DNA of 64,000 nucleotides from a virus. Lineage: Duplodnaviria; Heunggongvirae; Uroviricota; Caudoviricetes. Each line of letters opens with the position of its first letter. The stretch's first letter is position 1. Below the pieces are notes generated by a model that did no database searches, was not told the DNA's origin, and saw nothing but the letters and a program-made list of their open reading frames with translations. Where the stretch lies: IMG/VR virus record IMGVR_UViG_2698536476_000008; one strand, given 5' to 3'. The translations under genes and the position numbers were made by a program. This document shows, in pieces, positions 20,830 through 22,964 of the stretch.

Positions 20830-21061
20830 ACAGAACGAAAAAGCTATCGCTCAAATTGCTGATTATATCCCGCGTGCGTGCCGGGGTATGCAGTTGCAGG
20901 AAGCCAAAGCGCGCCTGGAGAAAAAAATTGCGCTCTATATTGATGACGGCTGTGATGCTGCCGTTCTTAACGCGGCGTTCGCACCAGCTCTTAACAGTCA
21001 TACTCGGGAGTCTTTTTTTTCGTGCATCGAAGCGCAACTCCGCAAAGGAGGCAGCCAGTGA
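20822..21061 (+). CDS. Hypothetical 79-aa protein ending LRKGGSQ
   Basis: ORF track; C-terminal tail shared with next gene. Confidence 0.3.
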   Translation: MFKQNEKAIAQIADYIPRACRGMQLQEAKARLEKKIALYIDDGCDAAVLNAAFAPALNSHTRESFFSCIEAQLRKGGSQ

Positions 21062-22269
21062 GCAAAATTAATTACCGGGCACTGCGTGAGATAGCAAAAC
21101 AGGCAACACAGGGCGAATGGGTCGCATTTATTTCGCCGGGTACTGGTACGTATGCGGTGCATACGCCCGGTGATAAACGATGTGAAGATGTTATCAAATG
21201 GACCGGCTTTGATGGGCTGAAAAACGCAGAGAACAACGCTCGTTATGTTGCCGCATTCAACCCAAAGGTTGCACTGGCGCTACTTGGTGAAATTAAGCGC
21301 CTGGAGGACACAAATATTGATGCTATGTGCCGAATAGCACCGCTTGAGACTAAGCTCGCGGCGCTGGTGGCAGAGAACGCCGGGCTGAAACACGCAATGG
21401 CCGTAACTCTTGAGCATGTGTCGGTCACGGATGCAGGGCAGGCTGGTGTTGCTGCAATGATTATCAACGATGCCCTACACCACAGCGAAACTCCAGCTAG
21501 GCGACCTGATGATAGTGATGTTCCGACAGGAGAGAGCAGAGAAAGGGGAATCAGCATGAAATTTTCCAAATTTTCTGAGTTGGTGAATCGTATTTTGTCC
21601 AACAACCACAGCCATCGTCGCGATATGGATGTAACAATCGTTGTTCATTCGCCTGGCAGCATTGGTTCAACACCTTCAGTTGAGGTTCAGTCAATTCACG
21701 CTGGTTTTGATTGGGATTCCGGGAAAGTGCTTATTTTCCCATCACAGCCACTGACCACGCTAACACCAGAACAGATTACTGATATCACTGATAGTGTGCG
21801 CAAAGGTCAGTCTTGGCACGCATATCAGGAATACAAGAAGCATCAAGAGCAGTTGGAAAAATTGTCGATTGAACTGGATGCCGCAAAACAGCGCATTGCA
21901 GAGCTGGATGGTAATCGCACGGCGCTGGCAGTGGAGAATGCCTCAATGAAGCTGTTTATCAGGGGCTGTTGCTACGTGTTTGATGGCCAGCAGGATGAAA
22001 TATCTGATGCGTATATCTGCGCAACAGACGGAGGGATGCCGCAAATTCCAGCCACCGACGCTTTCCTGGCTGAAGTTCGGGCGCAGGGGGTGGATGCTGC
22101 TATAGAAGCTGCAAAAAATCTGGTGGCCCAAGAATATGAGTATAAGGATTTCAAAGCGGCGCAGAGTGATTGCTGTATGCACCCTGGTTCAGACCTGGTA
22201 GGGAAGGTTGAAATGACTGAGTGGTTAGTTGACTTTGCTGCCCAGCTTCGCAAAGGAGGCAACCAGTGA
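21058..22269 (+). CDS. Ea22-like protein (GTG start, N-terminus SKINYRALRE)
   Basis: AGGAGG RBS then GTG; conserved Ea22-like N-terminus. Confidence 0.5.
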   Translation: MSKINYRALREIAKQATQGEWVAFISPGTGTYAVHTPGDKRCEDVIKWTGFDGLKNAENNARYVAAFNPKVALALLGEIKRLEDTNIDAMCRIAPLETKLAALVAENAGLKHAMAVTLEHVSVTDAGQAGVAAMIINDALHHSETPARRPDDSDVPTGESRERGISMKFSKFSELVNRILSNNHSHRRDMDVTIVVHSPGSIGSTPSVEVQSIHAGFDWDSGKVLIFPSQPLTTLTPEQITDITDSVRKGQSWHAYQEYKKHQEQLEKLSIELDAAKQRIAELDGNRTALAVENASMKLFIRGCCYVFDGQQDEISDAYICATDGGMPQIPATDAFLAEVRAQGVDAAIEAAKNLVAQEYEYKDFKAAQSDCCMHPGSDLVGKVEMTEWLVDFAAQLRKGGNQ

Positions 22270-22964
22270 GCAAAATTAACTATCAAGAACTGCGCGAGGC
22301 GGCGGAGAAGGCTACGAAAGGTAAGTGGGCTGTTGAATTCGACGATGAGATTTACTCCACTGACGGCATAAAGCATGAGCAAATAGCTATGGTGTTCAGT
22401 GAAAACGAATCTCGTGATGCTGAATTCATCGCCGCAGCCAATCCGGCTACCGTCTTGGCGCTGCTGGATGAACGGGAAAGAAACCAGCAATACATCAAAC
22501 GCCGTGACCAGGAGAACGAGGAAATTGCGCTAACGGTAGGGAGGCTTCGCGTTGAGCTGGAAGGCAAAGACAGCAAAATAGCCAATCTTACCGCCGAACG
22601 CGATGCTCTTCGTGAAGGTGAGATGGGCGACGCTAGGCATAGCAACACACGGGCCGCAGCTGATATCTACTTCCAACTGGTCGAGGAGTGCGAAATTCCT
22701 GCTGGCGGATCTCTGGTCGAGTACGTTGACGATATGCGCGAGAAGCTGGAAGCCGCAGAGAAGCGCATTGCAGAGTTAGAAAGTGGTTCTCAGGCACAAA
22801 AGTTAGTTGAAGCAATCATTGTTGCGATAGAAAACGAACAGGAAAGGCTTTTTGATGAAGATTACCTAATGGATTCGAAAGAATGCATTGACGTAATTCG
22901 TGAAGAAGTAAAGCGATGGAATGATTCCCGTGCCGCTGGCATTCGCATCAACGGAGGTGAGTAG
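22266..22964 (+). CDS. Ea22-like protein paralog (GTG start, MSKINYQELRE)
   Basis: Same junction architecture as preceding gene. Confidence 0.5.
   Translation: MSKINYQELREAAEKATKGKWAVEFDDEIYSTDGIKHEQIAMVFSENESRDAEFIAAANPATVLALLDERERNQQYIKRRDQENEEIALTVGRLRVELEGKDSKIANLTAERDALREGEMGDARHSNTRAAADIYFQLVEECEIPAGGSLVEYVDDMREKLEAAEKRIAELESGSQAQKLVEAIIVAIENEQERLFDEDYLMDSKECIDVIREEVKRWNDSRAAGIRINGGE

Follow-up and report, generated by a model that had tools for sequence, protein, structure and literature searches.

Whole-gene gain, loss and replacement at a composite gene-boundary repeat in P1-like phage-plasmids

Short conserved boundary sequences have been proposed as a route to phage mosaicism (Susskind & Botstein 1978; Clark 2001, on HK620; both as cited in PMC3029335), and at mosaic joints such sequences are usually not identifiable (PMC3029335). 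Rad52-like recombinases and annealases act on short, diverged homology (PMC3945230, PMC2327257), and the minimal pairing segment is 23–27 bp for Red-beta and 31–34 bp for RecA (PMC3945230). Ea22 proteins, which consist of a short N-terminal segment, a central coiled-coil and a variable C-terminal domain (PMC10834534), have already been described as mosaics (PMC10834534, PMC7093339), and pro-lysogenic activity has been described for the family (PMC7093339). Here we describe a 64,000-nucleotide (nt) stretch of viral DNA (IMG/VR record IMGVR_UViG_2698536476_000008; the window) in which a 31-bp sequence occurs twice, as junction repeats J1 and J2, at the starts of two successive genes with an Ead/Ea22-like beginning. 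Comparison of related genomes shows gain, loss or exchange of whole genes precisely at this junction, and we consider it probable that the junction is a conserved initiation region and protein N-terminus which doubles as homology for cassette exchange.

The first copy, J1 (CGCAAAGGAGGCAGCCAGTGAGCAAAATTAA; 21041..21071, plus strand), was located by exact pattern match, and the second, J2 (CGCAAAGGAGGCAACCAGTGAGCAAAATTAA; 22249..22279, plus strand), is identical to it at 30 of 31 positions, with a G>A difference at core offset 13 and a longest perfect run of 17 nt (13 nt, the mismatch and 17 nt). A pattern scan found no third copy of the 31-mer at ≤3 mismatches on either strand within the window, and two matches were reached in none of 100 dinucleotide-preserving shuffles, in agreement with the near-identity that the initial annotation had reported. 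The core is embedded in weaker homology between the two sites, amounting to 73% over 90 nt as judged by repeat search and alignment. The three genes joined by the repeats are co-oriented on the plus strand and linked by GTGA stop/start overlaps; on the map of open reading frames (ORFs) they are g1 (20822..21061; 79 aa, phrog_1344, ending AQLRKGGSQ*), g2 (21058..22269; a chimeric ORF of 403 aa, starting (GTG)SKINYRALRE and ending AQLRKGGNQ*) and g3 (22266..22964; a 232-aa Ead/Ea22-like protein, also recognised by Pfam, starting (GTG)SKINYQELRE).

The repeats had been described as spanning the last codons of one gene (LRKGGxQ), the ribosome-binding site (RBS) and the GTG start of the next (SKINY), and this is confirmed by the ends and starts of the ORFs and by the Shine-Dalgarno (SD) sequence. 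They had also been called module-boundary repeats; they do lie at gene borders, and each proved to be a composite of two separable elements. Element A (21041..21061 in J1 and 22249..22269 in J2, plus strand; consensus CGCAAAGGAGGCA[A/G]CCAGTGA) holds the codons RKGGSQ* or RKGGNQ*, respectively, and a perfect SD core, AAAGGAGG (21044-21051 and 22252-22259), which doubles as the K-G-G codons of the upstream gene and ends 6 nt before the GTG of the GTGA overlap (21058-21061 and 22266-22269). Element B (21058..21106 and 22266..22314, plus strand) covers the first ~16 codons of the conserved Ead/Ea22 N-terminus (SKINYRALRE... and SKINYQELRE..., respectively). Since A is also found before non-Ead genes and B after other upstream contexts, as detailed below, the 31-mer combines a portable translation-initiation element with a conserved Ead N-terminus. 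The layout typical of coupled genes, a GTGA overlap with the SD inside the upstream coding sequence, is present at both copies and would be expected to give translational coupling.

The initial annotation had named the comparison of related genomes at the repeats as the way to assess cassette shuffling, with lack of variation speaking against it. Variation was found, in the form of units of 1208 bp and 997 bp and of cassette swaps, and recombinant joints were observed inside the junction in near-identical genomes. The plasmid pLH10-b-1-B (NZ_CP100532.1; L239), which matches the window at 99.6% over 18801-21090 and at 99.8% over 22240-24162, lacks exactly 1208 bp, the start-to-start spacing of J1 and J2. 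Its single junction carries the left flank of J1 (70/70), the right flank of J2 (80/80) and the J2 polymorphism, with the switch point within CGCAAAGGAGGCA; according to its annotation, which for this and all other relatives was taken as deposited, g1 is followed directly by a 699-nt ead gene, the same gene as g3. The event altered the tail of g1 from GGSQ* to GGNQ*. As the joint is present in 1 of 5426 complete E. coli genomes, we take it to represent a recent single event and not a habit of assembly. In a second pair, the P1-like contig L084 matches the likewise P1-like plasmid pUMNF18_103 (L001) at 98.5% identity as far as the stop codon within a copy of element A (L001:4160), and homology restarts at L001:5131, the next A copy, with the L084 junction being a base-level hybrid of the two L001 copies. 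The intervening 997-bp cassette, bounded by junction copies and consisting of a DUF4752 gene and a gene for a 237-aa protein, is present in L001 and absent from L084.

Replacements occur at the same positions. A 214-aa non-Ead cassette directly follows element A in three P1-like plasmids (L241, L003 and L004), the A copy that closes a 233-aa Ead gene is followed in L240 by a gene of another kind, and g3 of the window is replaced, relative to L001, from 15 nt past J2. Further, g1 and J1, together with the preceding gene g0 (20626..20829, plus strand; 67 aa, phrog_1226), which travels with g1 in the sampled loci, are common to many Stx1/Stx2-converting lambdoid phages at ~93% identity, and the homology stops at 21090, the right edge of the conserved island described below. 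Such sharing implies that genes have moved between P1-like and lambdoid phages, something not detected in an earlier survey (PMC3945230). The idea that L084 is itself a lambdoid prophage, and hence that the exchange at 98.5% was one between P1-like and lambdoid phages, was rejected, as L084 is P1-like; lambdoid sharing is read solely from the 93% matches. In the Stx phages, the copies of g0-g1 and the junction (window 20609-21090) adjoin a PAPS-reductase/NinC gene.

RecA-independent replication slippage, or a template switch from one short direct repeat to the other, might also produce an intragenomic gain or loss such as the 1208 bp that distinguish the window from pLH10-b-1-B. The runs of identity, 13 and 17 nt, lie under the minimal pairing segments (PMC3945230). 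Moreover, one hybrid repeat combined with exact loss of one repeat unit is just what slippage would leave behind. Slippage efficiency drops steeply with distance, however, and the distance here is 1.0–1.2 kb; slippage does not explain how flanks come to be replaced by unrelated sequence from other elements, and the 90-nt shoulder of 73% identity fits relaxed, annealase-type recombination. We therefore hold slippage to be a possible but unlikely source of these events.

The behaviour of the junction over many genomes was followed in two samples. The main one, from a pattern scan of viral contigs and fetched relatives, comprised 121 contexts with full flanks, 117 of them unique; the second, less biased one consisted of loci picked by the peptide encoded 170–250 nt downstream. 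As the sequences are related, pair counts below are not counts of independent events. On clustering, the flanks of the 117 unique contexts fell into 39 upstream and 32 downstream DNA clusters, which occurred in 83 combinations, and downstream of g1 alone the sampled contexts showed 12 different flank clusters; upstream and downstream flanks thus reassort almost freely. With the contexts anchored on the core, mean pairwise identity runs from 0.95 to 0.82 at offsets 0 to +49 from the core start, has dropped to ~0.3 at -20 on the left side and to ~0.4 at +80 on the right side, and is ~0.25–0.3 outside, which delimits a conserved island from about -15 to about +65 around the core start. In pairs sharing one flank only, homology stops at -20..+4 on the left and, in most pairs, at +45..+80 on the right.

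This spread of switch points bears on the possibility that cassettes are moved by a dedicated site-specific system, of the integron attC or invertase kind, acting on the junction. Short repeated elements at cassette borders and small accessory genes arrayed in one orientation are what such a system would show. The switch points, however, are dispersed from about -20 to about +80 and do not mark one phosphodiester bond; a repeat search found no inverted repeat or hairpin at the junction, which folds no better than shuffled sequence; and a recombinase gene was annotated beside the arrays in none of 8 related loci. Taken together, these observations make a site-specific system hardly credible. 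Another suggestion is that the junction is a regulatory RNA element, either a small-RNA target or an SD-sequestering hairpin, repeated through co-regulation. Both copies do contain a small CUCC/GGAG stem able to pair with the SD, yet the upstream arm varies (CTCC, CTTC, ATTC, ATCC) without compensation. RNA folding of the two junctions against shuffles was not significant (z = -0.95 and -1.11), and an Rfam scan of the whole window at gathering thresholds placed no family at the junction. The RNA-structure explanation was dropped, the fold energies being within the shuffle range, and we rate it as very improbable.

Element A has a wider distribution than the Ead genes. It also precedes a DUF4752 gene, a gene for a phrog_2457 protein, one for a 136-aa protein whose start resembles a signal peptide, and others. 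The proteins encoded upstream of it are mosaics of several N- and C-terminal modules, all ending in (A/E)(Q/E)(L/I)RKGGNQ*; they were grouped by greedy clustering, single linkage having chained 70 proteins into one cluster owing to this mosaicism. In ~15 contexts the KGGNQ* frame holds no upstream ORF and the DNA of element A is still conserved, tails such as *YIRKPSKGGNQ showing it to lie outside any in-frame upstream gene. Conservation without an in-frame upstream gene argues that element A is conserved as DNA or RNA and not as peptide. These contexts, with ...AGAAAGCCCAGCAAAGGAGGCAGCCAGTGAGC..., are those of L007, L011, L019 and about a dozen further loci; translated by hand, their upstream gene apparently runs through the element in a different frame and stops ~11 nt into the Ead gene. 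Synonymous-site diversity is 0.00–0.10 in the KGGxQ codons vs ~0.7 a few codons upstream. We considered this freezing as proof of recombinational homogenisation and rejected it, because the SD and the start codon account for most of the frozen positions.

In the less biased sample, the upstream half AAAGGAGGCAACCA was present at ≤3 mismatches before ~45% of 105 Ead starts. When the loci of this sample were aligned to the window, 5 homology starts and 13 ends fell at J1 (21020-21119) and 15 starts and 11 ends at J2 (22220-22319). The boundary between g0 and g1, which carries no island, had zero homology start or end points in the same loci and serves as an internal control.

The window's own g2 has a different history. 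The initial annotation had placed the repeats at the starts of consecutive Ea22-like genes, and g2 and g3 both pass the Pfam cut-off of 27 bits for Ead_Ea22 (PF13935), with 93.3 bits for g2 residues 2-148 and 97.8 bits for g3 residues 2-172; g2, however, is Ead-like over residues 2-148 only, being a chimera made by a 487-bp deletion. Its three parts, all on the plus strand, are an Ead N-terminal part (21058-21498), an out-of-frame stretch of 19 codons left over from the 3' end of a DUF4752 gene (21499-21555), and a 237-aa protein (21556-22269), which retains an RBS of its own and an ATG at 21556. The deletion joint, CCAGCTA|GGCGACC at 21498..21499, was found by comparison with pUMNF18_103, whose sequence upstream of it is 99.9% identical; position 21499 of the window has two counterparts there, L001:3900 and L001:4387. 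The deletion holds relative to many other plasmids as well. The deletion took the C-terminal part of a 233-aa Ead gene, its copy of the junction element and most of the DUF4752 gene. Since both halves of the joint lie 487 bp apart in all 15 of the E. coli matches listed for it, the ancestral array was g1, ead, DUF4752, the gene for the 237-aa protein and ead, with three junction copies. The difference between the window and pUMNF18_103, its closest relative, was thus rejected as a case of repeat recombination; it is a deletion with 1 bp of microhomology at 21499.

Alternatively, the repeat could be a by-product of paralogy and functional constraint, with the joints arising by random illegitimate recombination, selection retaining those at gene borders, and the island having no targeting role. 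The frozen sites of element A are largely the SD and the start codon, the Ead N-terminus shows conservation as protein, a single bp of microhomology served for the 487-bp deletion, and most mosaic joints lack boundary sequences (PMC3029335). Illegitimate events would not, however, be expected to fall repeatedly inside the same 13–25 nt and to leave perfect hybrids in genomes ~99.7% and 98.5% identical, nor is it evident why the g0/g1 boundary of the same data set should be free of breakpoints or why unrelated upstream genes should all gain a KGGNQ* tail. Moreover, Ead genes work with several other initiation regions, and element A is therefore not required for their function. We judge a pure by-product distinctly improbable.

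The reading that we prefer, of an initiation region and N-terminus doubling as homology for exchange, runs as follows. J1 and J2 are copies of a composite gene-boundary island of ~60–80 bp, which recurs among E. coli temperate phages and P1-like phage-plasmids in hundreds of cassettes of accessory genes. Element A, its left half, is a portable termination/initiation junction, with a strong SD, a 6-nt spacer and a GTG overlapping the upstream TGA, and this layout makes the upstream gene usually end in ...KGG(N/S)Q*; element B, its right half, encodes the first ~16 conserved residues of Ead/Ea22-like proteins. Recombination between two copies, whether in one genome or in two co-resident elements, would result in deletion, insertion or replacement of whole genes, because the island is the sole sequence common to otherwise unrelated neighbours. 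Both flanking reading frames and the translation signals would stay intact, and with the same stop, the same SD and the same GTG retained the products would be viable by construction. Between different elements the island often offers ~50 nt at ~90% identity, which is adequate. As regards the initial proposal of cassette shuffling by homologous recombination, exact gain and loss and the reassortment of flanks at the repeats bear it out; the enzymology, homologous or homeologous recombination through host RecA or Rad52-like phage annealases, we infer.

Several observations weigh against this reading. With a longest perfect run of 17 nt, below the published minimal pairing segments, intragenomic homologous recombination between J1 and J2 should be inefficient, so that such an event is expected to be rare and slippage is also possible; RecA-independent slippage or template switching would explain the hybrid joints just as well, and the direction of an event, deletion or insertion, is not readable from the comparisons. 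The main junction sample was chosen by the motif itself, and ~55% of the 105 Ead starts in the less biased sample stand behind other upstream sequences, of at least 5 kinds, the lambda type being one. Most of the invariance of element A at the DNA level is accounted for by the SD and the start codon, and functional constraint alone could conserve it, with no need for selection on recombination. The window's own 487-bp deletion lies off the repeats. Finally, an intragenic conserved island within g2 (22040..22100, plus strand; encoding ...PATDAFLAEVRAQG...) is a breakpoint cluster as well, with 10 homology starts in bins 22020-22059 and 9 ends in bins 22080-22119, which suggests that domain-level exchange inside Ead-type genes may take place besides exchange at gene borders. 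The ...PATDAFLAEVRAQG... motif is also found at the deletion edge in L001 (~3900).

A stronger version of our preferred reading would make element A a general-purpose cassette linker, maintained beyond passive conservation, in an integrase-free cassette system that spans P1-like phage-plasmids and lambdoid/Stx prophages. We consider this quite unlikely. If it were true, the linker would be kept since any cassette then swaps in frame and ready for expression, and it would be a conduit of gene flow between both phage groups.

The element that carries the locus is a P1-like phage-plasmid of the Punavirus type. An Rfam scan of the whole window at gathering thresholds found the P1 C4 antisense RNA at 34196-34283, and the top sequence matches of the window were Punavirus phages and E. 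coli plasmids of ~82–110 kb; matching plasmids numbered ~760 and matching E. coli genomes ~2800. In the closest relatives, a PmgS-like gene and a 3'-phosphatase gene (pap) lie directly upstream of the locus, with the theta-subunit gene hot downstream. From these backbone genes, the P1 RNAs and the Punavirus matches, the locus was assigned to the known hypervariable pmgT-hot region, i.e. the highly variable region 8 of P1-like phage-plasmids (pmgT...hot...humD; PMC9603915). The isrK-like and C4 antisense RNA matches at 34094-34283 mark the P1 immunity region, and three tRNA genes of the P1 type, found by the Rfam scan within 4105-6331, fit a P1-type backbone. Just upstream of the locus, pUMNF18_103 has IS1203 and IS21 remnants (L001 1-1497) where the window has PmgS and pap, which is further evidence of a rearrangement hotspot.

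Two additional observations concern repeats and relatives outside the junction. A second start-region pair, GATGAAAAACCGTAA[G/A]GCAAA, identical at 20 of 21 positions, is present at 23136-23156 and 23309-23329, 173 bp apart, at the starts of consecutive small paralogues (58 and 62 aa; MKNRKAK..., phrog_1380), the same arrangement on a smaller scale. A scan of genome contigs (L207-L233) returned an 83%-identical Ea22 segment on contigs of ~1 kb or ~48.4–48.5 kb from assemblies labelled Streptococcus, Prevotella, Streptomyces, Pseudomonas, Shewanella and others; this apparent breadth across species was not used, since most of the matches are most likely phage lambda contamination.

Among described systems, the lambdoid linkers come closest. 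As presented in PMC3029335, they too are short conserved sequences at gene boundaries with unrelated flanks and joints inside, for which general recombination is presumed. In comparison with that account, the linker described here differs in being defined per base, as an initiation and stop-overlap unit plus a protein N-terminus, in giving a common KGGNQ* tail to unrelated upstream proteins, and in residing in a P1-like hypervariable region while copies ~93% identical occur in Stx-converting lambdoid phages. It likewise resembles the homology shoulders and relaxed annealase recombination described among E. coli temperate phages and prophages (PMC2327257, PMC3945230), with near-identity (30/31) bounded by intermediate similarity (73% over 90 nt) and exchange within the same kind of host elements; those shoulders, however, extend over hundreds of bp with no tie to gene starts, whereas the island covers ~60–80 bp exactly at a gene junction.

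The Ea22 proteins of lambda and of Stx phages, themselves mosaics (PMC7093339, PMC10834534), belong to the same Pfam family, Ead_Ea22, and their architecture of a conserved short N-terminal segment, a coiled-coil and interchangeable C-terminal domains may be shared by the present proteins. For g3 the coiled-coil is seen only as a weak family match (DUF7310, E = 0.0029), together with a KRIAELE repeat motif. In contrast to those phages, the Ead genes of the present locus stand in tandem in a P1-like plasmid, and the DNA junction of the exchanges has been identified. With integron cassettes the array has in common co-oriented small accessory genes of varying number and order with a repeated element at their borders; it differs in that no integrase is annotated beside the arrays, neither an attC hairpin nor a fixed crossover point is present, exchange is probably driven by homology, and the repeat itself belongs to the signals for coding and translation.

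The idea of boundary sequences is already known, and the junction is a well-documented instance of it, not a new kind of system. What it adds is a linker defined at the base level together with its composite nature, its use before several gene families, its presence in P1-like phage-plasmids, and natural before/after pairs. It accounts for the turnover of the hypervariable pmgT-hot region in these phage-plasmids and for the odd C-terminal tail shared by annotated Ead/Ea22-like and neighbouring proteins. With a plasmid pair ~99.7% identical that differs by exactly one inter-repeat unit, and with hundreds of natural recombinants, the locus represents an unusually clean and tractable case of exchange at gene-boundary sequences.

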